Shown here piece by piece: positions 13,733 to 32,000 of a DNA stretch of 32,000 nucleotides (its first letter is position 1; each line of letters begins with the position of its first letter). The notes beneath the pieces are model-generated. The model saw only the letters and a program-made list of their open reading frames with translations. It was not told the DNA's origin and ran no database searches. The position numbers were made by a program, and so were the translations under genes. The stretch is from Trichodesmium erythraeum IMS101 (GTDB taxonomy: Bacteria; Cyanobacteriota; Cyanobacteriia; Cyanobacteriales; Microcoleaceae), in NCBI RefSeq assembly GCF_000014265.1, contig NC_008312.1, positions 1,590,001 to 1,622,000 on the forward strand, given 5' to 3'.

Positions 13733-14209
13733 ATGAAATGTTTTCTATTCTTTTTTTGGAGAGATTGGATATTTCATATTAGTGATTTTTTTCTATTTTA
13801 ACTTTTTTTTGTTGAATAAAAAATCTAGTTTATAGGAAAATAAATACTACTATATTAATAGTACCATAGAGGATTTCGCTTACATAGTCAAATCCTCTGA
13901 TTATGAAAATATTAAAGCTTTACAAAATAAATATTTCTAACCCTCCTCAACTGTTCTGATCATTATTTATATAGAGTTAAGGCCACCATATTTTTATGGA
14001 TTAACTACAAGATTTAGTAATGATTATTTTCTCTGGTTTTCTTGGGGCGATCGCTTGTTTTTTTATAGTTATTTTAATTTGGATTGAGACAAGTTTTTTC
14101 TTACTATAATTAAGTTTCAGTAGAAAAAGTTTTCCATTCTTATTTGTAACGACTAGAATTTTTACTGTTGAATAAAAAGTCTAGTATATGGTCAGGTAAA
14201 TCTAAAATA

Positions 14210-14238
14210 ATAATATCACAATTAGCTTGAGAATGCTA
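14210..14238 (-). promoter_or_regulatory. Sigma70-type promoter of the dispersed promoter/box module (orphan copy)
   Basis: On the minus strand: TAGCAT, a 17-nt spacer, then TGaTATTAT (extended -10). It is followed at about +20 by the box ACTAGACTTTTTATTCAAC (plus-strand coordinates 14168-14186). It fires toward 13.8 kb, where no ORF exists. Confidence 0.5.
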
Positions 14239-14272
14239 GCTTATTACAAACAGTCAGGAAAAAATATGACTT

Positions 14273-15049
14273 TCAGCGTGTAGCAGTAGAAATAGTTTTT
14301 CCTAGTGACATTAAAGTTCGTTTAAAATTTTCAGCACGACTGCAGAAATCATCACCTTTTCCTAAATCAAATGCCATTCCTTTGACTCCTGATAATAACT
14401 TTAAATAAACTTGACTTTCGGCATCTTGAGTGGCAATAACTAAATAAAATTGTTCTATTCCTGTAGTTTGAATAGCTGTTACCACTTCCTCAATATTTTT
14501 AGTTTTTTTATCTGGAATATGTGGAGGAGCATCTGTTACTAAAACAATAGCTTTATTACTTTCTAAATCAAAGGGTTGAGCCAATGCCAACATGACTGCA
14601 TCTAAACTACTTTCTGGCACATCTCCCCCTCCATAAGCTTTAATTTTAGCAACTTTTTGGCGGAAAAGAATGGGATTATTTGTAAAGACTTTTCTGTCAA
14701 ATTTTAAGAGTTGATGTTCTTCATTAATGAGGCGATCGCGAAATTCTATTAAACCCACTCTAACTCAGACCCCATCTTTTTCGATAGTATCAGCAAATTC
14801 CATGATTGTTTCTTTTATCCCATAAATTTCACCTTGCATACTGCCAGTACAATCTAACACAAACATGATATCTGCTTTGCGTTTTATGTCTAAAGTTTCT
14901 GCTCTTTGCCTCAGAGTTTCAATAAATTTTTCTCGGGAATAACTTTTAACAGTTTTTGCTGCTAGTTTTGTCTCCAATTTTAGACCACACTCATTACAGA
15001 ATTTAGCAGTATCTAAATTTGAGGCTCCACATTTAGGGCAAGCTTTCAT
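14273..15049 (-). pseudogene. Zinc-ribbon + von Willebrand A (vWA) protein interrupted by one in-frame TGA
   Basis: ORFs 14765-15049 and 14273-14758 are in the same frame, separated only by TGA at 14765-14767 (...EKDGV*VRVGLIEFRDR...). The N-terminus has the CPKCG...CNECG zinc ribbon. The MIDAS motif is DCTGS in FVLDCTGSMQG, and a later VLVTDAPPH strand follows. Confidence 0.75.
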
Positions 15050-15056
15050 TGTTTTA

Positions 15057-16238
15057 TTAACTCCTATCTAAAAACACAAACCTTAAAAATACATCTCCCA
15101 CTTTAATCATATTCCCATGTTTAATTTCCACAGGATAATTATCAATCATTTTACCTTTCAACATAGTACCATTTTTACTACCTAAATCTCGGACAAAATA
15201 ATTATTTTCCTTTCTCATAAACTCCAAATGTTGTCTACTAATAGTTGTATCAGCTCCGGCAATATCTACACGACCTAAAATCAGACTACCACTATCATTA
15301 ATATTTACAAAAGTACGAGCTCCTTTGTTATTTCCAGATTCTACTATTAATAAGGGGTATTCAAAATTTAAAGCTATGGGTAACTTGGGATATTCAAGAG
15401 GAATTTCTAAATCACAAATCACGTCTTCTACTGACTGATAACGTTCTTCTGGATTAATCTTCATCATCTGGGATAATACCTGCTCTACTTCTGGGAAAAA
15501 ATCACAGTAAAAATCATTCAAATCTATCCCTATTTTTGGTGTTGGGGTTTGAGTTAAATACTTGATAAAATCTTCTAGTTTATACCAACCGGAATGACGC
15601 CAAAAATTTTCTCCCATGGCTAACTCATAAAGAATATGACCGAGAGAATAAATATCACTTTTAGCATCGGCAACTTTGGCTCCTTCTATCAAAAATTCTG
15701 GAGCCATATAGGGAGGTGTATCTATTATTTCTTTGCTCATGGTAATATTTTGATCTTTAAATTTGGCAACTCCAAAGTCGATAATTTTTGTTTGCATATC
15801 ATTGCTAATAATAATATTTGCTGGTTTTAAGTCTCTGTGAATAATGTTGCATTGATGAGCTGCAGATATACCTAATAATATTTGTTTAAATATTTGTTTT
15901 TTTTGTCGGTTATTGAGGGATTTTTTTTCTAAGAGTTTGTCTAGGCGTTTGCCGGGAAAGTATTCAAATAATATTAGATAGGTATTAGCATCCCATTCTT
16001 TTAGACCTAATAAGGGGATGATGTTTTCTGAGGGGATGTTAACTGCTGCTTCTAAACGAATTCTTTCTACTAAGGTTTCTTCTGGTTTAATTCCTTGAAT
16101 TACTTTTAAAATATAGTTTTTTTTGTGGCTATGGTCTATTGCTTTCCAAGCGGAACCAAAAGTACCTGTTCCTAGAAGTTCTAATAATTCAATTTCGCCT
16201 ATTTTATTAATATTGATAGGAATTTTTCCACCTACCAT
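15057..16238 (-). CDS. Ser/Thr protein kinase with C-terminal FHA domain
   Basis: G-loop GTGTFGSAWKA, HRDLKPANI, IDFGVAK and PPYMAPE. The C-terminal FHA signature is LILGR...ISRQHLEF...FVRDLGSKNGT. The ORF is intact at 393 aa. Confidence 0.9.
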   Translation of the reverse strand: MVGGKIPININKIGEIELLELLGTGTFGSAWKAIDHSHKKNYILKVIQGIKPEETLVERIRLEAAVNIPSENIIPLLGLKEWDANTYLILFEYFPGKRLDKLLEKKSLNNRQKKQIFKQILLGISAAHQCNIIHRDLKPANIIISNDMQTKIIDFGVAKFKDQNITMSKEIIDTPPYMAPEFLIEGAKVADAKSDIYSLGHILYELAMGENFWRHSGWYKLEDFIKYLTQTPTPKIGIDLNDFYCDFFPEVEQVLSQMMKINPEERYQSVEDVICDLEIPLEYPKLPIALNFEYPLLIVESGNNKGARTFVNINDSGSLILGRVDIAGADTTISRQHLEFMRKENNYFVRDLGSKNGTMLKGKMIDNYPVEIKHGNMIKVGDVFLRFVFLDRS

Positions 16239-16242
16239 TAAT

Positions 16243-17400
16243 TCTAAAGTTTTTGAAATTTTAGGTTATCAGTTTTTCAGTTATCAGTTTTCCAATTATC
16301 AGTTTTTTGATTTATTAGTATTAGTACCTCCAGTTAAAACTTCAGTTCAGAGTTTTTTTCAGTTATAAGTTTTTTCAGTTATCAGCTTTTTTAGTTATTA
16401 GCTATTAGTATCTCAAATTCAAGCTTCAATTATCAGCTTTTTCATTTCTTAGCTTTTTCATTTCTTAGCTTTTTCAGTTATCAGCTTTTTCAGTTATCAG
16501 CTTTTTGATTTATTAGCTATTAGTACCTCCGATCCAAGCTTTAATTATCAGTTTTTTTCAGTTCTTAGTTTTTTCAGTTATCATTTATCAGTTATCAATT
16601 ATCAGTTTTTTCAGTTATCAGCTTTTTGATTTATTAGCTATTAGTACCTCCGATCCAAGCTTTAATTATCAGTTTTTTTCAGTTATTATTTATCAGTTAT
16701 CATTTATCAGTTATCATTTATCAGTTTTTTCAGTTATCAGCTTTTTGATTTATTAGCTATTAGTACCTCCAGTTCAAGCTTCAGTTATCAACTTTTTTAG
16801 TTGTGAGCTATTAGTACCTTCAGTTCAAGCTTTAATTATCAGTTTTTTTTCAGTTATTAACTTTTTCAGTTATCAGCTTTTTCAGTTATCAGCTTTTTTA
16901 GTTGTTAGCTATTACTACCTCCATTTCAAGCTTTAATCATCAGTTTTTTTTCAGTTATCAGCTTTTTCAGTTATCAGCTTTTTGATTTATTAGTTATGAG
17001 TACCTTCAGTTAAAGCTTCAATTATCAGCTTTTTCAGTTCTTATATTTTTCAGTTCTTAGCCTTTTTAGTCATCAACTTTTTCAGTCATCAGCTTTTTTA
17101 GTTATTAGTTATTAGCACCTCCAGTTAAAGCTTCATTTATAACTCAGTTATTAACCTTTTTTTACTTATAATCTTTTTTAGTTATTAGCTATTAGTAACT
17201 TCAGTTTAAGCTTCAATCATCAGCTTTTTTTAGCTATTAAATTTTTCAATTATTGGCTTTTTTAGTTATCAGTTTTTCAAGGGTTAACTTTTTTAGTTAT
17301 TAGTGATTAGTCTTTCCACTTAAAACTTTAGTTATTAGTTACTAGGTAAGGATTCAGGTATACAAAATAGGTAAGTATTCAGTTATTAGCTTTTTTTAGT
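16243..17400. repeat. Nested tandem-repeat array B (STRR-like) between the PP2C and kinase genes
   Basis: About 10 units of roughly 90-125 bp share the core TTAGCTATTAGTACCTCC..CAAGCTT. They are padded by 16-mers (TTTTTCAGTTATCAGC) and heptamers (TTATCAG/TTATCAT). For example, 16492-16611 and 16612-16731 look nearly identical. Confidence 0.85.
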
Positions 17401-17554
17401 GAGTAGCTGGGGTATTGAAAAATTATTGATTGGTCAAATTATTAATTGAGAGAGAATTAAAATTTACTGTCAAACTACACTGCTTTAACTTTAGAAGTAA
17501 TTATTCTCTATTAATTCCTAATCACTCAGTTCTTGCCTAAAAAAATATGTTTGT

Positions 17555-18409
17555 TTACCATTTTTTTATTGATTGAATTACTGTTTCATTATCTGCACTT
17601 TTTCCAAGATGACGCCATACAATTAAAGTCTGATTATCCGTTTCCCCCCCCTTGCTGAGATTGACTAATTAATTTCTTAGAGATTTTTTTTAAATCTCCT
17701 TCTGATAGGATATCTTTTAATTCTTTTTCCTGGAAATTACTACTCACTCCATCACTACATAATAATAGTAAATCTTCTGCATAAAGCGAAACATAATGTA
17801 TGGGTAAATCTGGTGGTAAATTATCACACCCTAAATAAAATTCTAACATATTCTTTCCCTCGTGGTGAGCTGCCATTTCTGAGATAATTATTCCTCCTCG
17901 TCTTATGGCACTTGCTAATGTGTGGTTGTCGGTAATTTGTCTGATTTTTTGACCATAATTTTGATGAGAATAATGATAGATTAGGCTGTCTCCTAAGTTG
18001 GAAATAATTGCTATTGCTTCGGAGATTAAGGCAACTGCTAATGTGGCTCCAGATTTATCCCAACTATTGTTTTTTATTATTCTTTTTATATGAGCGTTTG
18101 TTTCGGCGATCGCTTCTTTTATGGCTATAGTTAATGTTTCTATAGTTGGGAGTTTTTTGCTTTTTTCTTGGTTGTTAATACTGGGTTCAAATACTAAGGT
18201 TTCAAATAGGCTGAGGCTGATCTTTTTAGGACTTCTCTACTGATTTCTTCTCCATGTTCGTAACCTCCTATTCCATCTGATATTGCTAATAATGTTAATG
18301 GGCTTTGCTTTGGGTTTGGGGTGAGTTGGCAGATGATGAAGCTGTCTTCGTTTTTCGGTCGTTTGTTAGTTTCGCTACGACTTACATATTCAATGTTTGT
18401 TGTTTTCAT
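17555..18409 (-). pseudogene. PP2C-family Ser/Thr phosphatase with two frameshifts
   Basis: Three collinear frames. (1) MKTTN...NEDSFII...LLAISDGIGGYEHGEE (18409-18194). (2) ...GATLAVALI...NLGDSLIY...ITDNHT...LLLCSDGV... (to 17634). (3) DNQTLIVWRH...KKW* (to 17555). The shifts lie near 18195-18210 and at the C8/G8 run 17644-17651. Confidence 0.8.
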
Positions 18410-19153
18410 TTTTGGCTCTTGGGATTAAAATTAGATAATTTTATAGTTTTTGCTTTTTGGTTTTAATATTTTAAATTTTACGGTTTTTCTGCCGTTGTTA
18501 AATTGGCAAATTTTTCTGAGTTGCTGAATGAGGTTTCAATGTTTTTGGCGCTTTTTTGAGATTTTGTGATATCCTATACATAGGATATAATTTTCTACGC
18601 TTATACTTTAATTCATTTTTATGGCTTTTAATTCTTATTCTGCCGTTGTCTTGGTTTGTTTTTTTCTGATTCTTCTTTGCTCAAAATGACTAATTTTTCT
18701 CTGGTGGTTTTGGCGGTTTTGACAAATTATTTTTTGTGTGATAAGAAAACGGAATTTTTTTGATTTTTAGCAGTGGTTTTATGTTGAATAAAAAGTCTAG
18801 TGCGTAGGCGATATAACCTAAATAACATGATAATACCAAAATTTTCTTCGGGATGCAACCCTGATTTTTTGGTCGGCGCCAGTTTTTTGAGCTCCAGAAA
18901 ATGAGGATAAAAATATACCCTAGTTCAATTAGTGTTGATAAGAGCAAAAGCAACTACTGCTTTTATCATTCTTCCAGGAATTGAAAAGAATCAAACAACC
19001 TTTCGGCAAACCCACTCAGCTGTCTAACTCTGGTTGATTTTCGGAAGCTTGATTAAAAACTCAGGAACTGAGTGGATTCTTCCACACTCTTGATAAATTC
19101 CCATTTACCAGTCTATTATTCTGCCGGATTCTTTTTTTCTCTGATTCTTCTTT
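18263..19153. repeat. Left arm of a 0.89-kb inverted repeat (PP2C codons 1-49 + about 410-nt leader + promoter module)
   Basis: The reverse complement of 18263-19153 matches 27165-28054, with only scattered single-base differences in the stretches I compared by eye. Confidence 0.85.
18830..18858 (-). promoter_or_regulatory. Predicted promoter of the PP2C-kinase-vWA operon (module copy)
   Basis: On the minus strand: TTGCAT (18858-18853), a 17-nt spacer, then TGgTATTAT (-10 at 18835-18830). The box ACTAGACTTTTTATTCAAC is the reverse complement of 18783-18801. The leader to the PP2C ATG (18409) is about 410 nt. Confidence 0.55.
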
Positions 19154-19154
19154 A

Positions 19155-22100
19155 GAAAATTTGAGTAGAGTTATCCATATTTATGAAATTTTTAGCAGAA
19201 GACCAACACCATAATTTAAATTTGAAGACCTCAAAAGTTTCCCATTATAATCACCTACTTATTTCTTGAAATTTTTAATTCTAGACTTGGAATTTTGAAC
19301 TTTGAATTTTTGAATTTTTGAATTTTAAATTTTGAATGTAGGATTTTTTTCCTTTTCCCTTTTCCCTCTTTCCTTTTTTCCTTAAACTTCATAAAATTTG
19401 AGTAGAGTTATCCATATTTATCAAACTTTTAGCAGAAAACCAACACCATAATTTAAATTTGAAGACCTCAAAAGTTTCCCATTGTCATCACCTACTTATT
19501 TCTTGAAATTTTTAATTCTAGACTTGGAATTTTGAACTTTGAATTTTTGAATTTTTGAATTTTAAATTTTGAATGTAGGATTTTTTTTCCTTTTCCCTTT
19601 TCCCTCTTTCCTTTTTTCCTTAAACTTCAGAAAATTTGAGTAGAGTTATCCATATTTATCAAACTTTTAGCAGAAAACCAACACCATAATTTAAATTTGA
19701 AGACCTCAAAAGTTTCCCATTATCATCACCTACTTATTTCTTGAAATTTTTAATTCTAGACTTGGAATTTTGAACTTTGAATTTTTGAATTTTTGAATTT
19801 TAAATTTTGAATGTAGGATTTTTTTCCTTTTCCCTTTTCCCTCTTTCCTTTTTTCCTTAAACTTCAGAAAATTTGAGTAGAGTTATCCATATTTATGAAA
19901 TTTTTAGCAGAAGACCAACACCATAATTTAAATTTGAAGAGCTCAAAAGTTTCCCATTATAATCACCTACTTATTTCTTGAAATTTTTAATTCTAGACTT
20001 GGAATTTTGAACTTTGAATTTTTGAATTTTTGAATTTTAAATTTTGAATGTAGGATTTTTTTCCTTTTCCCTTTTCCCTCTTTCCTTTTTTCCTTAAACT
20101 TCAGAAAATTTGAGTAGAGTTATCGATATTTATCAAACTTTTAGCAGAAAACCAACACCATAATTTAAATTTGAAGACCTCAAAAGTTTCCCATTATCAT
20201 CACCTACTTATTTCTTGAAATTTTTAATTCTAGATTTGGAATTTTGAACTTTGAATTTGGAATTTTAAATTTTGAATGTAGGATTTTTTTCCTTTTCCCT
20301 TTTCCCTCTTTCCTTTTTTCCTTAAACTTCATAAAATTTGAGTATAGTTATCCATATTTATCACACTTTTAGCAGAAAACCGACACCATAATTTGAATTT
20401 TAAGAACTCAAAAGTTTCCCATTATCATCACCTACTTATTTCTTGAAATTTTTAATTCTAGACTTGGAATTTTGAACTTTGAATTTTTGAATTTTAAATT
20501 TTTGAATTTGGAATTTTAAATTTTGAATGTTGGATTTTTTTCCTTTTCCCTTTTCCCTCTTTCCTTTTTTCCTTAAACTTCAGAAAATTTGAGTATAGTT
20601 ATCCATATTTATCACACTTTTAGCAGAAAACCGACACCATAATTTGAATTTGAAGAACTCAAAAGTTTCCCATTATCATCACCTACTTATTTCTTGAAAT
20701 TTTTAATTCTAGACTTGGAATTTTGAACTTTGAATTTTTGAATTGTAAATTTTTGAATTTGGAATTTTAAATTTTGAATGTAGGATTTTTTTCCTTTTCC
20801 CTTTTCCCTCTTTCCTTTTTTCCTTAAACTTCAGAAAATTTGAGTAGAGTTATCCATATTTATGAAATTTTTAGCAGAAAACCGAAACCATAACTTAAAT
20901 TAGAAGACCTCAAAAGTTTCCCATTATCATCACCTACTTATTTCTTGAAATTTTTAATTCTAGATTTGGAATTTTGAACTTTGAATTTGGAATTTTAAAT
21001 TTTGAATGTAGGATTTTTTTCCTTTTCCCTTTTCCCTCTTTCCTTTTTTCCTTAAACTTCAGAAAATTTGAGTAGAGTTATCCATATTTATGAAATTTTT
21101 AGCAGAAGACCAACACCATAATTTAAATTTGAAGAGCTCAAAAGTTTCCCATTATCATCACCTACTTATTTCTTGAAATTTTTAATTCTAGATTTGGAAT
21201 TTTGAACTTTGAATTTGGAATTTTAAATTTTGAATGTAGGATTTTTTTCCTTTTCCCTTTTCCCTCTTTCCTTTTTTCCTTAAACTTCAGAAAATTTGAG
21301 TAGAGTTATCCATATTTATGAAATTTTTAGCAGAAAACCGAAACCATAACTTAAATTAGAAGACCTCAAAAGTTTCCCATTATCATCACCTACTTATTTC
21401 TTGAAATTTTTAATTCTAGACTTGGAATTTTGAACTTTGAATTTTTGAATTTTTGAATTTTAAATTTTGAATGTTGGATTTTTTTCCTTTTCCCTTTTCC
21501 CTCTTTCCTTTTTTCCTTAAACTTCAGAAAATTTGAGTATAGTTATCCATATTTATCACACTTTTAGCAGAAAACCGACACCATAATTTGAATTTGAAGA
21601 ACTCAAAAGTTTCCCATTATCATCACCTACTTATTTCTTGAAATTTTTAATTCTAGACTTGGAATTTTGAACTTTGAATTTTTGAATTGTAAATTTTTGA
21701 ATTTGGAATTTTAAATTTTGAATGTAGGATTTTTTTCCTTTTCCCTTTTCCCTCTTTCCTTTTTTCCTTAAACTTCAGAAAATTTGAGTAGAGTTATCCA
21801 TATTTATGAAATTTTTAGCAGAAAACCGAAACCATAACTTAAATTAGAAGACCTCAAAAGTTTCCCATTATCATCACCTACTTATTTCTTGAAATTTTTA
21901 ATTCTAGATTTGGAATTTTGAACTTTGAATTTGGAATTTTAAATTTTGAATGTAGGATTTTTTTCCTTTTCCCTTTTCCCTCTTTCCTTTTTTCCTTAAA
22001 CTTCAGAAAATTTGAGTAGAGTTATCCATATTTATGAAATTTTTAGCAGAAGACCAACACCATAATTTAAATTTGAAGAGCTCAAAAGTTTCCCATTATC

Positions 22101-22825
22101 ATCACCTACTTATTTCTTGAAATTTTTAATTCTAGATTTGGAATTTTGAACTTTGAATTTGGAATTTTAAATTTTGAATGTAGGATTTTTTTCCTTTTCC
22201 CTTTTCCCTCTTTCCTTTTTTCCTTAAACTTCAGAAAATTTGAGTAGAGTTATCCATATTTATGAAATTTTTAGCAGAAAACCGAAACCATAACTTAAAT
22301 TAGAAGACCTCAAAAGTTTCCCATTATCATCACCTACTTATTTCTTGAAATTTTTAATTCTAGACTTGGAATTTTGAACTTTGAATTTTTGAATTTTTGA
22401 ATTTTAAATTTTGAATGTTGGATTTTTTTCCTTTTCCCTTTTCCCTCTTTCCTTTTTTCCTTAAACTTCAGAAAATTTGAGTAGAGTTATCCATATTTAT
22501 CAAACTTTTAGCAGAAAACCGAAACCATAACTTAAATTAGAAGACCTCAAAAGTTTCCCATTATCATCACCTACTTATTTCTTGAAATTTTTAATTCTAG
22601 ACTTGGAATTTTGAACTTTGAATTTTTGAATTTTTGAATTTTAAATTTTGAATGTTGGATTTTTTTCCTTTTCCCTTTTCCCTCTTTCCTTTTTTCCTTA
22701 AACTTCAGAAAATTTGAGTAGAGTTATCCATATTTATCAAACTTTTAGCAGAAAACCGAAACCATAATTTAAATTTGAAGACCTCAAAAGTTTCCCATTA
22801 TAATCACCTAATCATCACCTACTTA
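19155..22825 (+). repeat. Tandem array A: 15 full + 1 partial units of 228/237/251 bp
   Basis: The unit marker GAAAATTTGAGTAGAG recurs at 19155, 19392, 19630, 19867, 20104, 20332, 20583, 20834, 21062, 21290, 21527, 21778, 22006, 22234, 22471 and 22708. Each unit has a (T)GAATTTT microsatellite and a 34-nt pyrimidine tract. The array ends 19 nt before the target-1 ATG. Confidence 0.95.
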
Positions 22826-22843: not shown

Positions 22844-24713
22844 ATGCGTTGCCTAAACTGCTATACCGATGGTATCCCACTTGAGACAGAAATATGTTCC
22901 AACTGTGGCGCATACCTACCATCACTGACCCGAGACCTTCTCAAACCAGGAACTCAACTTCGAGCCCAGACCTATCGAATAGACTACCCCTTAGGTCGAG
23001 GAGGGTTCGGCGTTACCTATTGAGGACACCACACATTATTAGAACAAATAGTCGCCATCAAAGAATACTATCCCCAAAACTACCCCCTGCGACACCCCAC
23101 CACTGGCGGCTTCACCATTCCCACAAACCAACAGGAAATATTTCAACGGGGTTTACAAAGATTTCTCCGAGAAGGGAAAATATTAGCCCAACTAAATCAT
23201 CTTCACGTGGTGGGGGTAACTGACTTATTTAAGGAAAATGAAACAGCTTACATGGTGATGGAGCTAGTTACAGGAAAAAGTCTCAGAAAAGAATTAGACT
23301 CTCAACCCCAGAAAAAATTTCCTCCTCAAAAAGTCAAAAAAATAATTACTGACCTCGTATCAGCATTATCCGCAGTACATAAAAAAGGAATATTTCACCT
23401 GGATATAAAACCCGATAATATTTTGCTAACTCCAGAAGGGCGGTTAGTATTAATTGACTTTGGCTCAGCACAACAAACCTTTGGTACTTCCATGGCTACT
23501 TCCAGCACTCGGACTTTTACTGAAGGTTATGTAGCTCCGGAAGTTCTCGCCGGGGGAGAAGTAGGAGTAGAAAGCGATATTTTTGAAGTCGGAATGATGG
23601 TTTATGAAATGTTGAGTGGGCAGTTACCTCCTAATGCTTTGGAACGTTTATTATTAAAAGCAAAAGGAAAAAGTTGGGAACCAGAAGGTTTAGAGTCATC
23701 TTGGCAAAAGCTGATAATGTCGGCTTTGGTTTTGGAAAAGGAAGGTCGCCCTGGAAATGTTGAAAAGTGGTGGGAGATAAATTTTCAGGAAAAATCAACT
23801 GACAGGACTCAGGAGTCAAAATTGAAAATATGGGAATTTATACAGAGAAAGAAAGATGTAAATTCTCCACCCCGACAAAAATTTAGTTTTGAGGTAATAA
23901 AGGTTAATTCCCGGGGTAAAGAAATTGACCGTCGTTCCTACGAAGCAGAATTTTTCGCAGAAAATTTAGGTAGGGGAGGGGGGTAGTCTTGGAAATGGTT
24001 TATATTCCTGGGGGAAGTTTTCTCATGGGGTCGCCGGAAAATGAGGCGGAAAGATACTCAATAAACTCTGATGAAGGTCCCCAACATCAAGTAAATCTCC
24101 AGCCTTTTTATATGAGCAAATATTCTATTACTCAAGACCAGTACCAAGCATGGGAAATAATCCTTCTTACTTTAAAGGAGGAAAACGCCCAGTAGAAAAA
24201 GTGAGCTGGCACGACGCTACAAAGTTTTGTCAGAAGCTATCATCAAAAACTGGGAAAATTTACACACTACCTAGTGAGAGTCAATGGAAATATGCTTGTC
24301 GCGCCGGGACTACTGCTCCTTTTTATTTTGGAGAAACTATAACGCCTGGGTTAGTTAACTACAGTGGTAACTATCCTTACGCCAATGCTCCTAAAGGAAA
24401 ATATCGAGGAGAAACAACAGATATAGGAAGTTTTCCTCCTAATGCTTTTGGTTTATATGATATGCACGGCAATGTTTGGGAATGGTGTCTAGATACTTGC
24501 CACGATAATTATAATGGAGCACCTACTGATGGAAGTTCTTGGGAAAGTGGGGGTGATAGTAATGACAGGTTGCTCCGTGGCGGTTGCTGGATCCACAATT
24601 CTAGATTTTGCCGGAGTGCCTGGCGCAACTATCTCTATGCCGACTACCTCTCCAACGATAGGGGTTTTCGAGTCATCTCCTCTTCCCCGGTGGTTTCTGG
24701 CTTTCATTCCTAG
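22844..24713 (+). pseudogene. DGR target 1: zinc-ribbon / Ser/Thr kinase / FGE-sulfatase (C-type lectin fold) protein, disrupted
   Basis: Collinear along its full length with the intact paralog at 29340-31193. It carries an in-frame TGA at 23021-23023 (the paralog has CGA Arg in GVTYRGHH). A frameshift sits near 23965-23990 (an extra 5 nt relative to the paralog). A second frameshift sits near 24145-24152 (4 nt missing). ORF pieces 23207-23986, 23989-24195 and 24150-24713 belong to it. Confidence 0.85.
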
Positions 24714-24721
24714 TATTCTTC
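24572..24721 (+). other. DGR variable repeat VR1 (3' end of target 1, runs 8 nt past the stop)
   Basis: Gap-free alignment to TR at offset 2031. There are 15 mismatches, 12 of them at TR adenines. The 3' IMH-like part is identical to TR except at 24680 (C in VR1, G in TR). Confidence 0.85.
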
Positions 24722-24730
24722 CACTTTTTA

Positions 24731-24775
24731 CTTTTCCCCTTTCCCCCTTTTTCCTTCTTTCCTTTTTCCTCTTTT
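24731..24775 (+). repeat. 45-nt uninterrupted polypyrimidine tract just downstream of VR1
   Basis: CTTTTCCCCTTTCCCCCTTTTTCCTTCTTTCCTTTTTCCTCTTTT. Related tracts occur in every array A/A' unit and about 50 nt downstream of the target-2 stop (purine strand at 29251-29289). No such tract follows TR. Confidence 0.8.
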
Positions 24776-25166
24776 GAGTCCCGCTTTAGCCGGCCGAAAT
24801 TTTTTTTCAAATTTAGGGTTGTTATGGCTTAGGCCATAGATAAGAAAGCCAAGGTCCCAAAATTTGAAGTAGGTTGGGCCTCAGAACGAAACCCAACATT
24901 CTCCCAATGGCAATAACGGCCTTATACCAAGGACTTATCTTGATACTGAAATATGAAATACTGAAATTATTAGGGGGTAAAAGTTTTAAAAGTTGAAAGT
25001 TTTAATCCATGACTTTTGATTTTGGTAAGGGGGGGTTGACTTCTAAAAACCGTGAAAAAAAAAGATTAATTTCATGGGAAAGAAACTGAAAAACAGTTAG
25101 CTTTAGGTTTTCTATTGACTCTTTTTGCACTTCCCCGAAATAGTATAAAAATTTAATCGCTATAGA

Positions 25167-25469
25167 ATGAACGAATTATCAATTATCCAAAAAACTTACG
25201 ACTTAATCATTTGGTATGTACCAATAATTAACAGACTACCTAAAACTCACAAATTTCAAATTGGCGATCGCTTAGTCAACAACTTATATAATTTTCTAGA
25301 ACTACTAATTATTGCCAAATATGCCTCAGAAAAACTCAACATACTAGAATCTCTAAACCCCAAACTAGACATAGTTCGTTATCAAAACAGAATTATTTTA
25401 GACTTCCAAATAATCAACAATAAACGCTACGAATATATCAGCCAAATAATCACAGAAATAGGCAAATAA
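25167..25469 (+). CDS. avd: Avd-like DGR accessory protein (four-helix-bundle, 23S-rRNA-IVS protein family), probably truncated at the C-terminus by a TAA
   Basis: 100 aa, helical. N-terminal YDLIIWYVPIINRLPKTHKFQIGDRL matches the Avd/IVS-protein pattern. Directly after the stop at 25467-25469 the same frame continues as LGIWIKQQKPKNP* (to 25511), resembling the usual Avd tail ..LGGW.K. Confidence 0.7.
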   Translation: MNELSIIQKTYDLIIWYVPIINRLPKTHKFQIGDRLVNNLYNFLELLIIAKYASEKLNILESLNPKLDIVRYQNRIILDFQIINNKRYEYISQIITEIGK

Positions 25470-25521
25470 TTAGGAATTTGGATTAAACAACAAAAACCGA
25501 AAAATCCTTAAACCATCAAAC

Positions 25522-26581
25522 ATGAAAAGACAGAAAAACTTATATCCCCAAATTACATGTTTTGACAACCTCCTCCTCGCAGCAAAAAAATCCCAGAAAG
25601 GAAAAAAATATAAACAGAATTTTCTGAAATTTAACTACAACTTAGAATTCATAATTACTACAACTAAAAACAGAATTATAAACTAAAACCTATCAACCAG
25701 GAAAATATAACACCTTGAAAATTATCGAAAGAAAACCCAGAATAATTTCCGCAGCTCCCTACCGAGACCGAATCATCCATCACGCCTTATGTAATATTAT
25801 TATTCCCATCTTTGAAAAAACATTTATCTACGATACTTATGCCAATAGAATCAATTTTGGTACTCATAAAGCCCTAAGTCGCTTCACCAAATTTTCCTGT
25901 TCCAGCTGTTACGTTTTACAATGCGACATAGTTAAATATTTTCCCAGCATCGACCATCAAATTCTCAAAGAAATTATTCGTCGCCAAATCAAATGTCAAG
26001 ATACTCTCTGGTTAATTGAAAAAATTATTGATGGAAGTAACCAACAAATTCCGGTATTAACTAAATTTCCCGGAGACGACTTACTCTCTTCAATAAATAG
26101 GAGAAAAGGTTTACCCCTAGGAAATTTAACTAGCCAATTTTTCGCCAACTTATACCTCAATAATTTCGATCATTTCATCAAAGAAGAACTGAAAGTCAAA
26201 AAATATCTACGTTATGTCGATGACTTTGCTTTATTCTCAGACGACAAAAAATTTCTAGTTATTGCCAGACAAAAAATTGAAACATATCTAGCCAACCTCT
26301 GCCTCAAGATTCATCCTATTAAAAGCCAATTATTTCAAACAAAAAAAGGAGCTAACTTTGTTGGTTTCCTAGTATTGCCAAACCGCATTAGAATACGTTC
26401 AGAAAATTTAAGAGCTGCCAGAAAAAAAATTCGACAATTACACGCACATTATCGACAAGGAAACATAGAATCTAGCCACATCCAAAAATCTCTACAAAGT
26501 TGGTTTGCTCATTTAGACCATGGCAATACCTGGCGCTTGAAACAAAAAATACTAACTTTTCTCAATACTATGGGAGAATAA
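25522..26581 (+). pseudogene. DGR-type reverse transcriptase, N-terminal region disrupted
   Basis: MKRQKNLYPQITCFDNLLLAAKKSQKGKKY..NYNLE reads in frame 1. After a 1-nt frameshift near 25648-25655 the sequence continues as [46 protein letters not shown]..., with an in-frame TAA at 25679-25681. It has the DGR-RT motif [17 protein letters not shown] and RYVDDF. It is collinear with Bordetella bRT as I recall it. The longest open piece is 25715-26581. Confidence 0.85.
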
Positions 26582-26599
26582 TTACGGGACTGACAAACC

Positions 26600-26752
26600 A
26601 AAGCTCCGTGGCGGTAGCTGGAACCACAATTCTAGACATTGCCGGAGTGCCAGGGGCAACTATAAAAATGCCGACAACCTCAACAACAATAGGGGTTTTC
26701 GAGTCATCTCGTCTTCCCCGGTGGTTTCTGGCTTTCATTCCTAGTATTCTTC
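26600..26752 (+). other. DGR template repeat (TR), 19 nt downstream of the RT stop
   Basis: Homologous to VR1 and VR2. Adenine-rich, and in the target frame it reads ..GGSWNHNSRHCRSARGNYKNADNLNNNRGFRVISSSPVV. The ORF-track entry 26500-26769 is an out-of-frame reading of it. Confidence 0.85.
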
Positions 26753-26763
26753 ATTGCCTGAGT

Positions 26764-27208
26764 TGGTAAATGGGAATTTATCAAGAGTGTGGAAGAGTCC
26801 AGTCAGTTCCTGAGTTTTTAATCAAGCTTCCGAAAATCAACCAGAGTTAGACAGCTGAGTGGGTTTGCCGAAAGGTTGTCTGATTCTTTTCAATTCCTGG
26901 AAGAATGATAAAAGCAGTAGTTGCTTTTGCTCCTATCAACACTCATTGAACTAGGGTATATTTTTATCCTTTATCCTCATTCTCGGGAGCTCCAAAAAAC
27001 TGTCGCCGACCCAAAAATCAGGGTTGCATGCTGAAGAAAATTTTGGTATTATCATGTTAGTAGGTGTAGCTCGCCCATACACTAGACTTTTTATTCAACA
27101 TAAAACCACTGCTAAAAATCAAAACCGCCAAAACCACCAGAGAAAAATTAGTCATTTTCAGCAAATAAGAATCAGAGAAAAAAAGAAACCGGCAGAATAA
27201 TAGACTGG
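26764..27208 (+). repeat. Extra tandem copy of the about 440-bp promoter module, beginning 11 nt after TR
   Basis: 26764-27208 and 27209-27650 are direct repeats (TGGTAAATGGGAATTTATCAAGAGTGTGGAAGA...). They differ by substitutions and small indels. Confidence 0.8.
27024..27052 (+). promoter_or_regulatory. Module promoter, copy in the extra tandem unit
   Basis: TTGCAT (27024-27029), a 17-nt spacer, then TGgTATTAT (-10 at 27047-27052). The box ACTAGACTTTTTATTCAAC is at 27081-27099. Confidence 0.5.
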
Positions 27209-27458
27209 TAAATGGGAATTTATCAAGAGTGTGGAAGAATCCACTCAGTTCCAGAGTTTTTAATCAAGCTTCCGAAAATCAACCAGAGTTAGACAGCTGA
27301 GTGGGTTTGCCGAAAGGTTGTCTGATTCTTTTCAATTCCTGGAAGAATGATAAAAGCAGTAGTTGCTTTTGCTCTTATCAAGACTAATTGAACTAGGGTA
27401 TATTTTTATCCTCATTTTCTGGGGCTCAAAAAACTGGCGCCGACCAAAAAAATCAGGG

Positions 27459-27487
27459 TTGCATCCCGAAGAAAATTTTGGTATTAT
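27459..27487 (+). promoter_or_regulatory. Module promoter, duplicate of the PP2C operon promoter
   Basis: TTGCAT (27459-27464), a 17-nt spacer, then TGgTATTAT (-10 at 27482-27487). The box is at 27516-27534. Confidence 0.5.
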
Positions 27488-27907
27488 CATGTTAGTTAGG
27501 TGATATCGCCTACGCACTAGACTTTTTATTCAACATAAGACCACTGCTAAAAATCAAAAAAATTCCGTTTTCTTATCACACAAAAAATAATTTGTCAAAA
27601 CCGCCAAAACCACCAGAGAAAAATTAGTCATTTTGAGCAAAGAAGAATCAGAAAAAAACAAACCAAGACAACGGCAGAATAAGAATTAAGAGCCATAAAA
27701 ATGAATTAAAGTATAAGCGTAGAAAATTATATCCTATGTATAGGATATCACAAAATCTCAAAAAAGCGCCAAAAACATTGAAACCTCATTCAGCAACTCA
27801 GAAAAATTTGCCAATTTAACAACGGCAGAAAAACCGTAAAATTTAAAATATTAAAACCAAAAAGCAAAAACTATAAAATTATCTAATTTTAATCCCAAGA
27901 GCCAAAA

Positions 27908-28054
27908 ATGAAAACAACAAACATTGAATATGTAAGTCGTAGCGAAACTAACAAACGACCGAAAAACGAAGACAGCTTCATCATCTGCCAACTCACCCCA
28001 AACCCAAAGCAAAGCCCATTAACATTATTAGCAATATCAGATGGAATAGGAGGT
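27908..28054 (+). pseudogene. Truncated duplicate of PP2C codons 1-49
   Basis: Reads MKTTNIEYVSRSETNKRPKNEDSFIICQLTPNPKQSPLTLLAISDGIGG, the same as 18409-18263. Homology stops at 28054, where array A' begins. Confidence 0.85.
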
Positions 28055-29339
28055 AAGGAAAAAAATTCAAGATTCAAAATTTAAAATTCCAAATTCAAAG
28101 TTCAAAATTCCAAATCTAGAATTAAAAATTTCAAGAAATAAGTAGGTGATGATAATGGGAAACCTTTGAGTTCTTCAAATTCAAATTATGGTGTTGGTTT
28201 TCTGCCAAAAGTTTGATAAGTATGGATAACTCCACTCAAATTTTCTGAAGTTTAAGGAAAAAAGGAAAGAGGAAAAAGGGAAAAGGGAAAAGGAAAAAAA
28301 ATCCAAATTCCAAATTCAAAAATTCCAAATTTAAAATTCCAAATTCAAAGTTCAAAATTCCAAATCTAGAATTAAAAATTTCAAGAAATAAGTAGGTGAT
28401 GATAATGGGAAACCTTTGAGGTCTTCAAATTCAAATTATTGCGCCGGTCTTCTGCTAAAAGTTTGATAAGTATGGATAACTCCACTTAAATTTTCTGAAG
28501 TTTAAGGAAAAAAGGAAAGAGGGAAAAGGGAAAAGGAAAAAAAATCCTAAGTTCAAAATTTAAAATTCCAAATTCAAAGTTCAAAATTCCAAATCTAGAA
28601 TTAAAAATTTCAAGAAATAAGTAGGTGATGATAATGGGAAACCTTTGATGTCTTCAAATTCAAATTATGGTGCCGGTCTTCTGCTAAAAATTTCATAAAA
28701 AATATGGATAACTCCACTCAAATTTTCTGAAGTTTAAGGAAAAAAGGAAAGAGGGAAAAGGGAAAAGGAAAAAGGGAAAAGGAAAAAAATTCCAAATTCC
28801 AAATTCAAAAATTCCAAATTTAAAATTCCAAATTCAAAGTTCAAAATTCTAAATCTAGAATTAAAAATTTCAATAAATAAGTAGGTGATGATAATGGGAA
28901 ACCTTTGAGGTCTTCAAATTCAAATTATTGCGCCGGTCTTCTGCTAAAAGTTTGATAAGTATGGATAACTCCACTTAAATTTTCTGAAGTTTAAGGAAAA
29001 AAGGAAAGAGGGAAAAGGGAAAAGGAAAAAGGGAAAAGGAAAAAAATTCCAAATTCCAAATTCAAAAATTCCAAATTTAAAATTCCAAATTCAAAGTTCA
29101 AAATTCCAAATCTAGAATTAAAAATTTCAATAAATAAGTAGGTGATGATAATGGGAAACCTTTGAGGTCTTCAAATTCAAATTATTGCGCCGGTCTTCTG
29201 CTAAAAGTTTGATAAGTATGGATAACTCCACTCAAATTTTCTGAAGTTTAAGGAAAAAAGGAAAGACAGAAAAGGGAAAAGGAAAAAAATCCTAAATTCA
29301 AAACCTAAAATTAAAAATTAAAAATCCAAAAGAAAAACA
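28055..29339 (-). repeat. Tandem array A' (inverted copy of the array A family), about 5 units of 232-257 bp
   Basis: The marker CTCAAATTTTC (reverse complement of GAAAATTTGAG; two copies read CTTAAATTTTC) ends at 28245, 28495, 28727, 28984 and 29241. These units have diverged somewhat from array A units. The array abuts the target-2 stop codon at 29340. Confidence 0.9.
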
Positions 29340-29481
29340 CTAAGAATTAAAAGCAGAAACCACCGGGGAAGATGAGACAACCCGAAAACCCCTATAGTAG
29401 TAAAGATCATCGGCATTGTAATAGAAGCGCCAGGCACTACGACAATTTGTAGAATAGCTGTCCCAGCAACCGCCACGGAGC
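29340..29481 (-). other. Variable repeat VR2 (TR-homologous 3' end of target 2)
   Basis: Gap-free alignment to TR 26603-26744 gives 30 mismatches, 15 at TR adenines and 15 elsewhere (mostly C->T). It is TR-related but not a clean product of this TR. Confidence 0.6.
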
Positions 29482-31193
29482 ACTCTTTTACGATTACTAC
29501 CTCCAGTTTTCCAAGCACTTCCGTTAGTAGGTGCTCCATAATAATTATGGTGCCAAGCATCTAAACACCATTCCGAAACATTGCCGTGCATATCATATAA
29601 ACCAAAGGCATTAGGAAGAAAACTTCCCACATCTGTTGTTTGTTCCCGATACTCTCCAAATGGAGCATTGCCGTAAGGATAGTTACCATCGTAGTTAACT
29701 AACTCAGACGTCATAGTTTCTCCAAAATAAAAAGGAGTACTTGTCCCGGCACGACAAGCATATTCCCATTGACTTTCGCTGGGCAACCTGTAAATTTTCC
29801 CAGTTTTCGACGATAGCTTCTCACAAAACTTTGTAGCGTCGTGCCAGCTCACTCTTTCTACTGGGCGTTTTCCTCCTTTAAAGTAAGAAGGATTATCTCC
29901 CATAATAGCTTGGTACTGATCTTGAGTAATAGGATATTTGCTCATCAAGAAAGGCTTAATATTAACTTGATGTTGTGGACTTTCACTATCGAATCTTTCG
30001 TCCTCATATTCCGGTGACCCCATGAGAAAACTTCCCCCAGGAATATAAACCATTTCCAAGACCAACCCACTATCTAAATTTTCTGCCAAAAATTCTGCTT
30101 CGTAGGAACGACGGTCAATTTCTTTACCCCGGGAATTAACCTTTATTACCTCAAAACCAAATTTTTGTCGGGGCGGAGAACTTATATCTTTCTTTCTGTT
30201 TTTAAATTCCTTTGTTTTCCATCCTGACTCCTGAGTCCTTTCAGTTGATTTTTTGTGAAAATTCATTTCCCACCACTCCTCAATATTTCCAGGGCGACCT
30301 TCCTTTGCCAAAACTAAAGCCGACATTAGCAACTTTTGCCAAGACGACTCTAAGCCTTCAGGTTCCCAACTTTTTTCTTTTGATAATGAACGTTCCAGAA
30401 CATTGGGAGGTAACTGCCCACTCAACATTTCATAAACCATCATTCCTACTTCAAAAATATCACTTTCTACCCCTACCTCCCCCCTGGCGAGAACCTCCGG
30501 AGCCGCATAACTCTCAGCAAAACTCTCAGTGCTGGAAGTACCCATCGAAGTACCAAAAGTTTGTTTTGCCGAGCCAAAGTCAGTCAATACTAACCGTCCT
30601 TCTGGAGTTAGTAAAATATTATCGGGTTTTATATCCAGGTGAAATATTCCTTGTTGATGTACTGCCGATAATGCTGATACAAGGTCAGTAATTATTTCTT
30701 TGACTTTTTGAGGGGGAAATTTTTTCTCAGGTTGAGAATCTAATTCTTTTCTGAGACTTTTTCCTCTAACTAGCTCCATCACCAGGTAAGCTGTTTCATT
30801 TTCCTCAAATAAATCAATTACCCGCACCACATGAGGATGATTTAGTTGGGCTAATATTTTCCCTTCCTGGAGAAACCTTCGCAAACCCTGTTGAAATATT
30901 TCCTGTTGGTTTCTGGGAATGGTGAAACCTCCAGTGGTGGGATGTCGCAGGGCGTAATTTTGGGGATAGTATTCTTTAATAGCGACTATTTGTTTTAATA
31001 ATGTATGGTGTCCTCGATAAGTAACACCAAACCCTCCTCGACCTAAGGGGTAGTCTATTTGATAGGGCTTGTCTCCTAGTTGAGTACCTGGTGTTAGGAG
31101 GCCTCGGATTAGTGATGGTAGGTATGCGCCACAGTTATAACATATTTTTGTCTCAAGTGGAATACCGTCGGTATGGCAGTTTAAGCAACGCAT
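29340..31193 (-). CDS. DGR-type target 2: zinc-ribbon / Ser/Thr kinase / FGE-sulfatase (CLec-fold) protein, intact
   Basis: 617 aa. Zinc ribbon CLNCH...CYNCG. Kinase motifs GRGGFGVTY, HLDIKPDNILL, DFGSA and AAPE. FGE-sulfatase motifs RVSWHDATKFC, RLPSESQWEYACRAGT, GLYDMHGNVSEWC and LRGGCW. VR2 lies at the extreme C-terminus. Confidence 0.9.
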   Translation of the reverse strand: MRCLNCHTDGIPLETKICYNCGAYLPSLIRGLLTPGTQLGDKPYQIDYPLGRGGFGVTYRGHHTLLKQIVAIKEYYPQNYALRHPTTGGFTIPRNQQEIFQQGLRRFLQEGKILAQLNHPHVVRVIDLFEENETAYLVMELVRGKSLRKELDSQPEKKFPPQKVKEIITDLVSALSAVHQQGIFHLDIKPDNILLTPEGRLVLTDFGSAKQTFGTSMGTSSTESFAESYAAPEVLARGEVGVESDIFEVGMMVYEMLSGQLPPNVLERSLSKEKSWEPEGLESSWQKLLMSALVLAKEGRPGNIEEWWEMNFHKKSTERTQESGWKTKEFKNRKKDISSPPRQKFGFEVIKVNSRGKEIDRRSYEAEFLAENLDSGLVLEMVYIPGGSFLMGSPEYEDERFDSESPQHQVNIKPFLMSKYPITQDQYQAIMGDNPSYFKGGKRPVERVSWHDATKFCEKLSSKTGKIYRLPSESQWEYACRAGTSTPFYFGETMTSELVNYDGNYPYGNAPFGEYREQTTDVGSFLPNAFGLYDMHGNVSEWCLDAWHHNYYGAPTNGSAWKTGGSNRKRVLRGGCWDSYSTNCRSAWRFYYNADDLYYYRGFRVVSSSPVVSAFNS

Positions 31194-31284
31194 GATTTTA
31201 AGAGGTCAAAAATTAGATAAGAGTTTCAAAGCTTTCCGTAATTATAGTGTGGAGAATTTCCTGAAAAAGAAGGAAAAATGAGCA

Positions 31285-31313
31285 TAGCATCTTCAAAATA
31301 ACTATGATATAAT
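31285..31313 (+). promoter_or_regulatory. Array C unit 1 promoter
   Basis: TAGCAT (31285-31290), a 17-nt spacer, then TGaTATAAT (-10 at 31308-31313). Confidence 0.5.
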
Positions 31314-31530
31314 TTATGTATAGTTATAAATGTGGCACTATACTAGACTTTTTATTCAATGTAAAAAAAGCGATCGCTACAACACAACAATATATAAAAG
31401 GAAATTTAAGACATTCGAATGTTAGACAGTAAAAGATGTCAGAGAGCTTAAAAAAAAAATAACAACTAAATCATTATTACTTGCATTTTTTTTCATTCTG
31501 TGAAGCTCCAAAAAAAAGGAACAACGAGGG

Positions 31531-31559
31531 TAGCATCTTCAAAATAACTATGGTATAAT
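31531..31559 (+). promoter_or_regulatory. Array C unit 2 promoter
   Basis: TAGCAT (31531-31536), a 17-nt spacer, then TGgTATAAT (-10 at 31554-31559). Confidence 0.5.
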
Positions 31560-31779
31560 AAATAATGGGTATTCAATGCATATACTAGACTTTTTATTCA
31601 ACGTAAAAAAAGCGATCGCTACAACACAACAATATATAAAAGGAAATTTAAGACATTCGAATGTTAGACAGTAAAAGATGTCAGAGAGCTTAAAAAAAAA
31701 ATAACAACTAAATCATTATTACTTGCATTTTTTTTCATTCTGGGAAGCTCAAAAAAAAAGGAACGAGAAACAACGACGG

Positions 31780-31808
31780 TAGCATCTTCAAAATAACTAT
31801 GGTATAAT
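31780..31808 (+). promoter_or_regulatory. Array C unit 3 promoter
   Basis: TAGCAT (31780-31785), a 17-nt spacer, then TGgTATAAT (-10 at 31803-31808). Confidence 0.5.
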
Positions 31809-32000
31809 AAATAATGAGGATTAAATCCATATACTAGACTTTTTATTCAACGTAAAAAAAGCGATCGCCACAACACAACAATATATAAAAGGAAATTTAA
31901 GACATTCGAATGTTGGATAGTAAAAGATGTCAGAGAGCTAAAAAAAAAATAACAACTAAATCATTATTACTTGCATTTTTTTTTCATTCTGTGAAGCTCC

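Follow-up and report, generated by a model that had tools for sequence, protein, structure and literature searches.

A recurrent promoter-leader module with a near-invariant box around the diversity-generating retroelement of Trichodesmium erythraeum IMS101

Putative mobile promoters are promoter-bearing segments of 50-100 nt that lie upstream of non-homologous genes; they are sometimes common to several genera, the mechanism of their mobilisation is unknown, and a few of them may hold post-transcriptional signals (Matus-Garcia, Nijveen and van Passel 2012; PMC3575422). This is the closest published concept for the element described here, a module of ~115 nt that recurs eight times in a 32,000-nt stretch of Trichodesmium erythraeum IMS101 (NC_008312.1, positions 1,590,001 to 1,622,000; hereafter the window, with coordinates counted from its first base). 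The unit combines a strong predicted promoter with a short leader, at the end of which lies a near-invariant box of 19 bases; like the mobile promoters, it stands before non-homologous genes across genera. Most pairs of module copies fall slightly below the 80% cut-off used in that study (range 0.67-0.85). Set against the criterion of at least 50 nt at 80% identity or more, the copies of stretches L019 and L029 reach 0.80 over 115 nt and those of L022 and L023 reach 0.83 over 53 nt, whereas most pairs lie at 0.67-0.78. What the module adds to the concept is a predicted transcribed leader with a box conserved above its flanks, and many of its copies are tandem and geneless.

Other described systems share part of this organisation. 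The Correia elements of Neisseria, as summarised in PMC3575422, are short dispersed promoter-carrying miniature inverted-repeat transposable elements (MITEs) with terminal inverted repeats and a very high copy number. The module resembles them as a short repeat that would bring a promoter to neighbouring genes, but it has no terminal inverted repeats, and a very high copy number was not seen. Among cyanobacteria, the tandem small RNA (sRNA) arrays of the NsiR1 and Yfr2 families are intergenic and have a promoter in each unit and a conserved single-stranded motif, and their RNAs have a conserved body and defined 3' ends with terminators. Module units are likewise tandem, each with a predicted promoter and an apparently unpaired motif; they differ in that conservation covers the first ~50 nt only, no terminator was seen and some copies are mRNA leaders. 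In IMS101, highly expressed tandem-repeat non-coding RNAs (ncRNAs) arise from genome positions 103000-110200, in units of 736-973 nt that each have their own transcription start site (TSS), and this repeat has no similarity elsewhere in the genome except to a duplicated Tery_0080 fragment (PMC4143802). That array is a locus different from the modules; both are tandem, free of open reading frames (ORFs) and placed beside the 3' end of a convergent gene, while the start sites of the modules are predicted only.

In its features the window matches the published diversity-generating retroelement (DGR) locus of IMS101, for which a reverse transcriptase (RT) with an interrupting stop, a template repeat (TR) downstream of RT, two neighbouring genes with variable repeats (VR) and an abundant 265-nt TR-RNA were reported (PMC4143802). 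Set beside the cis elements of DGRs (TR, VR and the 3' homology region; PMC4143802), the module adjoins TR but has no sequence relation to TR or VR, and the 265-nt RNA, as placed here, ends at a hairpin near 26820, before the module; its start, 2632789r, would then fall close to window 26556 (about +/-30 nt). No box-like sequence was found in TR or VR, and the box and the module profile match only the eight modules in the window. The module is not a defined part of the DGR, though in three genera it follows TR immediately and reads in the same direction.

Trichodesmium ranks among the major nitrogen fixers of the sea. Non-coding DNA makes up about 40% of its genome, and a large part of this fraction is heavily transcribed for unknown reasons (PMC4143802). 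The module provides a concrete, testable unit of this fraction, locally copied and probably launching non-coding transcripts, and it connects genes at the side of the DGR, namely the PP2C/kinase/vWA row in the window and the gene for a RecQ-like helicase in relatives, through one cis signal. A box that serves as a control point would give access to regulation in the DGR neighbourhood and to the question whether orphan copies are functional or debris; otherwise, the module still illustrates cleanly how a promoter can be reused and amplified in tandem within a repeat-rich genome.

Architecture of the module in the window

The 19-nt box, ACTAGACTTTTTATTCAAC, occurs at eight sites in the window and nowhere else in it; six are exact and two carry one mismatch (13811-13829 on the minus strand and 31342-31360 on the plus strand). 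Dinucleotide-preserving shuffles of the window give a mean expectation of 0.02. A profile built from homologues recovered the same eight modules and no additional degenerate copies, so that all sites listed in a preliminary description of this DNA are present and complete the set. A scripted check found, in seven of the eight, the -35 element T[T/A]GCAT, a spacer of exactly 17 nt and the extended -10 element TGnTAT[T/A]AT, a geometry that the preliminary description had proposed. Its predicted +1 positions, 7 nt past the -10, were reproduced as well (27059, 27494, 31320, 31566, 31815, 18823 and 14203). These seven modules have the elements expected of a sigma-70-type promoter, namely a -35-like hexamer, a spacer of 17 +/- 1 nt and TGn plus a TAnnnT -10. 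The interval from the -10 to the box had been given as about 28 nt; this applies to four copies, while three have 24 nt.

From 5' to 3', the module comprises an upstream A-tract, GCTC(C)AAAAAA, the -35 T[T/A]GCAT, the 17-nt spacer, the extended -10 TGnTAnnAT and a predicted transcribed leader of ~45-50 nt. The box, with the consensus (A/G)CTAGA(C/T)TTTTTATTCAAC, forms the last part of the leader and is followed by a conserved (A/G)CAAAAAA. The eight copies, which fall into three locus types, are as follows.

26994..27107, plus strand: module copy 1 (PP2C type); -35 TTGCAT 27024-27029; -10 TGGTATTAT 27044-27052; predicted +1 ~27059; box 27081-27099
27429..27542, plus strand: module copy 2 (PP2C type); -35 27459-27464; -10 27479-27487; predicted +1 ~27494; box 27516-27534
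18775..18888, minus strand: module copy 3 (PP2C type); -35 18858-18853; -10 18838-18830; predicted +1 ~18823; box 18801-18783
31259..31369, plus strand: module copy 4 (array type, unit 1 of a 249-nt array); -35 TAGCAT 31285-31290; -10 TGATATAAT 31305-31313; predicted +1 ~31320; box 31342-31360
31514..31611, plus strand: module copy 5 (array type); -35 31531-31536; -10 31551-31559; predicted +1 ~31566; box 31584-31602
31766..31860, plus strand: module copy 6 (array type); -35 31780-31785; -10 31800-31808; predicted +1 ~31815; box 31833-31851
14159..14245, minus strand: module copy 7 (cobW-adjacent); -35 TAGCAT 14238-14233; -10 TGATATTAT 14218-14210; predicted +1 ~14203; box 14185-14167
13803..13895, minus strand: module copy 8 (cobW-adjacent, degenerate); TGGTACTAT retained, -35 poor; box 13829-13811 with 1 mismatch

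Copy 3 would serve as promoter and leader of a gene row for PP2C, an FHA-domain kinase, a Zn-ribbon protein and a vWA protein. Copy 2 is followed by a ~390-nt leader, a truncated PP2C ORF and a 257-nt repeat array, and copy 7 lies immediately past the vWA stop codon, directed at the 3' end of cobW. This agrees with the preliminary description in that one copy precedes the PP2C/kinase/vWA operon and the others precede a truncated PP2C or ORF-free DNA; it differs in that the PP2C gene behind copy 3 is frameshifted here.

Module copies in related cyanobacteria

A scan for the box, with one genome per species, found it in 39 DNA stretches. Twenty-six come from Trichodesmium, Okeania, Dapis, unnamed Microcoleaceae and related cyanobacteria; the remaining 13, from scattered unrelated taxa, show no module context, and by our estimate chance would give about as many matches to this pattern. 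A profile search of the cyanobacterial loci gave 69 module copies, in every one of which the box lies at a fixed distance from the promoter and on its strand. The promoter elements are ~0.9 conserved across these copies, and the segment between the -10 and the box, which looks variable within the window, is fairly conserved in the relatives (ATGTTAnTGGGGTAACTCGCCCATAC).

Because this first set had been fetched with the exact box, we made a second sample from metagenome contigs with a pattern that spans only the -35 to ATGTTA and does not use the box. The box or a close variant (ACTAGAC.., ACTAGAT.., GCTAGAC.., GGTAGAC.. or GCATGATTATTTATTCAAC) stood at the same distance in all 21 complete, distinct copies (21/21). 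Mean identity to the consensus in this promoter-anchored sample varied by segment:

40 nt upstream: identity 0.64
21 nt from ATGTTA to the box: identity 0.80
box, 19 nt: identity 0.92
last 12 nt of the box: identity 0.98
8-24 nt past the box: identity 0.52

Dispersed paralogues within one genome, placed before unrelated genes, are 0.67-0.85 identical overall and keep the box nearly invariant. We read this pattern as purifying selection on the box, and less on the promoter elements and the CTCGCC motif, since diverged paralogues keep the box while the flank beyond it is unrelated, and gene conversion would not spare the flanks. Shared descent alone would instead have the promoter region duplicated a few times, with the box invariant through youth or gene conversion. 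Recent duplication does account for much of the copy number seen in the window, and the genera are close, with identities of 0.60-0.86 between the window and its relatives at four-fold degenerate sites of cobW and the FHA kinase. The contrast within paralogues, at 0.67-0.85 overall, 0.92-0.98 in the box and 0.52 at 8-24 nt beyond it, speaks against descent alone, as does the expectation that conversion would homogenise the flanks as well, and we regard this explanation as extremely unlikely.

The genes found downstream of module copies are varied.

26-32 nt from the module: RecQ-like DEAD/Helicase_C protein (L004, L008, L012, L029)
349 nt from the nearer module: RecQ-like DEAD/Helicase_C protein (L025)
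~370 nt from the module: PP2C operon (window, L006, L011, L032)
229 nt from the module: NB-ARC/NACHT-WD40 protein, a STAND NTPase (L031)
166 nt from the module: oxoprolinase-like protein, judged from sequence, no domain scan (L034)
448 nt from the module: ZnuA-like protein, judged from sequence, no domain scan (L023)
no ORF within 1-1.5 kb downstream: more than half of the module copies

Several of these arrangements are syntenic. Okeania (L004) has the order avd-RT-module-module-recQ, and another Trichodesmium (L006) has target-avd-RT-TR-module-PP2C; modules convergent to cobW occur in Okeania (L007 and L039), Dapis (L027) and a cyanobacterial metagenome-assembled genome (MAG; L019). The promoter-anchored sample shows such contexts again: RT-module-module-recQ, vWA with a module after it, and modules that converge on cobW, beyond which lies HupE. 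Most modules are not adjacent to a DGR.

These distributions bear on whether the module is a selfish or mobile repeat, in which case it would terminate a non-autonomous element, with its promoter directed outwards and the box kept as a site of recombination or transposition and not for the host. The preliminary description had left room for such a repeat, of the MITE or insertion sequence (IS) end type. Sharp boundaries, unrelated genes downstream, IS debris nearby and some within-genome pairs that reach 80% over more than 50 nt all fit it. The termini do not: the 5' 35 nt against the reverse complement of the 3' 35 nt score 5.96, compared with 5.39 when shuffled (n = 28), and hence terminal inverted repeats were not found. 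Only a handful of loci per genome was seen, in stretches that fall short of whole genomes; these are syntenic across genera, the dispersed paralogues are old (~70-80% identity) and the recent copies are all tandem or segmental. A phage origin was also considered and rejected, as none of six viral matches has module context. We judge the mobile-repeat explanation to be very unlikely.

As a promoter-leader cassette the module is real, non-random and conserved in evolution, and it represents a new family among reused promoters and multicopy leaders. The suggestion in the preliminary description of a shared operator or RNA leader, with possible co-regulation, gains support in outline: a promoter-box unit stands at a fixed distance before unrelated genes across genera, and the box is its most constrained part.

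The box as a candidate RNA signal

Structure searches of the leader were negative. RNAalifold on 48 leaders returned 0 pairs, a candidate small hairpin was 53.6% paired against 53.3% in shuffles, and folds of single leaders were weak and inconsistent. Complementarity of the box to the next 250 nt did not exceed that of shuffles (mean z = +0.27, n = 63), and a downstream anti-box was rejected as a general feature; for the PP2C leader, RNAalifold proposes that the box pairs with GAGAAAAAUUAGUC ~100 nt downstream, with all pairs invariant. Read directly from its sequence, the box has no dyad or clear direct-repeat symmetry. The 0 RNAalifold pairs, a hairpin no better than shuffles, the lack of excess downstream complementarity and the absence of a dyad together support a linear signal over a fold.

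Specific candidates were set aside on similar grounds. An attenuator in which GUUAG and CUAGAC pair so as to enclose a GC hairpin, with a U-run behind it, has no consensus structure, no hairpin support and inconsistent folds, and the likely +1 falls inside its proposed 5' arm. A terminator-like site was found on the plus strand at none of the modules, and the U-run of the box lies 7-11 nt from a weak GGGG/CCC stem, i.e. not directly after it. A small ORF (MLxGxxRPYTRLFIQ) is interrupted by in-frame stops in the window at 27516 (ATG TTA GTT AGG TGA) and in L016, and is stopped also in five GCATGA-variant copies of L051, L052 and L054; conservation in the promoter-anchored sample lacks 3-nt periodicity, and the ATG lies only 2-4 nt past the -10. 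Rfam gave no match at gathering threshold in the window and only chance-level matches (E of 5 or more) in 26500-28100, and no tRNA or tmRNA was found. The box sequence is absent from the papers searched. Contig ends of public assemblies, considered as a proxy for transcript ends, are located at repeat boundaries and are uninformative on TSSs.

We propose that the module originated as the native promoter-leader of genes in a conserved DGR-linked neighbourhood (the PP2C/kinase-FHA/Zn-ribbon/vWA row and, in relatives, the RecQ-like helicase); old paralogues of it precede a few other genes and many ORF-free stretches. RNA polymerase would start ~7 nt past the -10, and therefore every transcript would open with the same leader and box, the latter at about +19/+23 to +37/+41 and presumably unpaired. 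The box would act as a linear signal for a common trans-acting partner (an RNA-binding protein, a nuclease or a complementary RNA), such that all box-carrying transcripts would be handled together. Judging by their promoter signals, the extra copies in the window would fire into the truncated PP2C fragment, repeat arrays or IS debris, and the orphan tandem copies would supply large amounts of box-bearing non-coding RNA. Action at the RNA level is favoured because the box is long, asymmetric, wholly within the predicted transcript and placed at a sharp 3' edge of conservation, and because it persists in a few array units whose promoter has decayed.

The observations establish the anatomy, distribution and duplication history of the module. 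We consider it quite probable that the unit represents a conserved promoter-leader cassette which duplication has spread, and the module family probably marks a transcript set under common control. The full statement, in which a clade-specific cassette carries a box that acts at the RNA level as a linear recognition signal, is put forward tentatively, and several considerations weigh against it. Both the activity of the promoters and their +1 positions are predictions; a repressor bound to a box at +23 to +41 could also block RNA polymerase; the trans-acting partner is hypothetical; and with a heterogeneous gene set behind the modules, a common physiological theme is only suggestive. Many module copies are recent duplicates and hence non-independent, and conservation among orthologues alone is uninformative on selection because the four-fold sites are themselves still 0.60-0.86 identical.

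One rival reading is a DNA operator, at which a clade-specific transcription factor would bind the box just past the start and block or modulate RNA polymerase, giving one transcriptional regulon. The fixed distance between box and -10, strong conservation without an RNA fold and a box within promoter reach (+19/+23 to +37/+41) are all consistent with an operator. The box itself, 19 nt without dyad or clear direct-repeat symmetry, is less so. A comparison by eye with consensus sequences, rather than a formal scan, gave no convincing match of the box to sites for NtcA (GTA-N8-TAC), LexA (RGTACNNNDGTWCB), Fur/Zur (7-1-7) or HLR1. In addition, three near-identical copies in L005 that have no -35 part keep the box with one change, and an exact box at L005:5899 has no visible promoter; although they are recent duplicates, these promoter-less boxes are more easily explained by action on read-through RNA. 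We consider an operator rather unlikely, and about half as likely as action at the RNA level.

The tandem units raise a further possibility, namely that the processed 5' RNA (+1 to ~+50) is itself the product, a multicopy trans-acting sRNA with the box as its seed and with arrays that raise its dose, in the manner of NsiR1-type or Yfr2-type families. Each tandem unit has its own predicted promoter, the box is invariant and apparently unpaired, conservation drops sharply after the box and A-run, and most copies have no downstream ORF. However, the box is not followed by an intrinsic terminator or by any other defined 3' end, no stable protective hairpin was found, and there is no conserved RNA body, with conservation stopping ~8 nt past the box (0.52 beyond). 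Several copies clearly belong to mRNA leaders, with the recQ-like start 26-32 nt away or PP2C ~370 nt away, and no complementary target was found in the sequence examined. An sRNA of this kind is improbable on balance.

Within RNA-level action of the box, a more specific scenario can be formulated, which we regard as a long shot. The box would be the shared 5' tag of a clade-specific post-transcriptional regulon around the DGR, and the amplified, copy-number-polymorphic orphan modules would be decoy RNAs that titrate its factor. Were this so, one factor would read the leaders of the PP2C/kinase/vWA row, the RecQ-like helicase, the STAND NTPase and others, and non-coding repeat expansion would tune the expression of a signalling or conflict island.

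Local duplication and the retroelement island

The eight window copies are not independent; three older locus types were multiplied by recent tandem and segmental duplication. The PP2C type has boxes at 18783 (minus), 27081 and 27516, the array type at 31342, 31584 and 31833, and the cobW-adjacent type at 14167 and 13811 (minus), between the vWA stop codon and the 3' end of the convergent cobW. The duplicated segments are as follows.

18257..19153, minus strand: left arm of a ~900-nt inverted repeat, running on into the full-length frameshifted PP2C (18409-17564)
27163..28060, plus strand: right arm of the ~900-nt inverted repeat, with module, PP2C leader and truncated PP2C N-terminus (ORF 27908-28084)
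26764..27647, plus strand: two tandem ~442-nt units, 26764-27205 and 27206-27647, 97% identical over their first 207 nt
31264..31999, plus strand: 249-nt units in tandem, composed of a module and an ORF-free body of ~130 nt that holds a HIP1 site (GCGATCGC)

The arms of the inverted repeat (18257-19153 and 27163-28060) are 98-99% identical, and the PP2C N-terminus in the right arm is limited to 58 codons (27908-28084) that run into the 257-nt repeat array. Each 442-nt unit repeats the DNA that adjoins TR on its 3' side, terminator-like hairpin included, and then has a module. Other assemblies have one such post-TR unit, compared with two in the window, and because unit numbers differ in this way, the high module copy number of the window is taken to be recent, local and polymorphic. 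Window 29212-32000 recurs at 100% identity in a contig of a public assembly; the 249-nt array has four units in the identical assembly L046 (the fourth just past the window end) and two in the metagenome contig L047. Only IS630-like debris follows the array. HIP1 sites (GCGATCGC) were seen in the repeats of the window.

Tandem amplification of the module recurs across strains. In Trichodesmium MAG_R02, stretch L036 has eight tandem module units of ~190 nt (4511-5958), in the last of which the post-box sequence is the same as that of the module before the recQ-like gene in L012; elsewhere in this MAG (L005/L035) there are at least 14 units of mixed full and promoter-less types.

The ~900-nt inverted repeats flank a segment that holds a 237-nt repeat array and the entire DGR. 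In related Trichodesmium MAGs (L006, L011) the order target-avd-RT-TR-module-PP2C-kinase-vWA lies all on one strand, and for this reason the window looks like an inversion between the repeats. On metagenome contig L066, array units are joined directly to a module unit, which is followed by truncated PP2C and the array again. This fits the other isomer or another rearrangement, and the DGR segment may flip in populations.

The main genes of the island are as follows.

24572..26752, plus strand: DGR core, with VR 24572-24721, bAvd 25167-25469, RT 25715-26581 and TR 26603-26752
14273..18409, minus strand: gene row behind module copy 3, with PP2C 18409-17564, kinase plus FHA 16238-15057, Zn-ribbon 15049-14765 and vWA 14758-14273

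TR and VR form a pair of 150 nt at 90% identity, and the N-terminal part of RT (from 25523) is severed by an in-frame stop. There are two kinase-FGE-sulfatase targets, one intact (29340-31193, minus) and one fragmented (22894-24713, plus). The PP2C behind the copy at 18783 is split across at least three reading frames (at least two frameshifts). With broken PP2C (17564-18409, minus), RT (25523-26581, plus) and kinase-FGE target (22894-24713) genes, the island seems to be decaying in IMS101; RT decay in this strain was likewise noted in PMC4143802.

The leader between module and PP2C (27535-27907, and 18782-18410 on the minus strand) is ~390 nt long and A-rich, with 83% mean column identity between Trichodesmium and Okeania in a comparison that took in L006, L011, L018, L032 and L039. 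It contains several invariant blocks of 15-25 nt, e.g. AGTCATTTTGAG, ATTGAAACCTC and TTTAAAATATTAAAAC. It is possible that this leader is structured or protein-bound; RNAalifold gives invariant pairs only. Upstream of the module, a segment of ~53 nt (26854-26906; AGCTGAGTGGGTTTGCCGAAAGGTTGTCTGATTC..., with a possible GAAA-loop hairpin) is conserved in Okeania and Dapis (L007, L018, L027), where it lies beside modules or elsewhere in the locus, and constitutes a second small conserved non-coding element.

Other repeats occupy much of the space between these genes. An array at 16266-17335 separates the PP2C pseudogene from the FHA-kinase gene, inside what would be expected to be a single operon, and is built from a 16-nt TTTTTCAGTTATCAGC motif in higher-order units of ~115-195 nt. 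Two ORF-free tandem arrays belong to one family, at 19150-22810 (237 nt x 15.5 copies) and, in inverted orientation, at 28063-29287 (257 nt x 4.9); the latter adjoins the VR end of the intact kinase-FGE gene. The 237/257-nt units contain (AAATTCC)n-like heptamer runs, AAGGGAA runs and a promoter-like site, TTGAAG-18-TATCAT, on the strand opposite to the modules. Remnants of DDE transposases lie near the island, as an IS4-like ORF (8452-9138, minus) and as the IS630-like debris just past the right end of the window (L046 900-1200).

At the cobW locus of Okeania sp. SIO2F4 (L007 5789-6638), the interval from the cobW stop to the convergent module array holds two to three tandem pseudo-copies of CobW_C, the C-terminal domain, and similar fragments occur on metagenome contig L059 (1345-1649). 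Transcripts from the L007 modules would be antisense to these gene-fragment repeats, a situation reminiscent of the repeated Tery_0080 fragments in the ncRNA array that is most abundant in IMS101.

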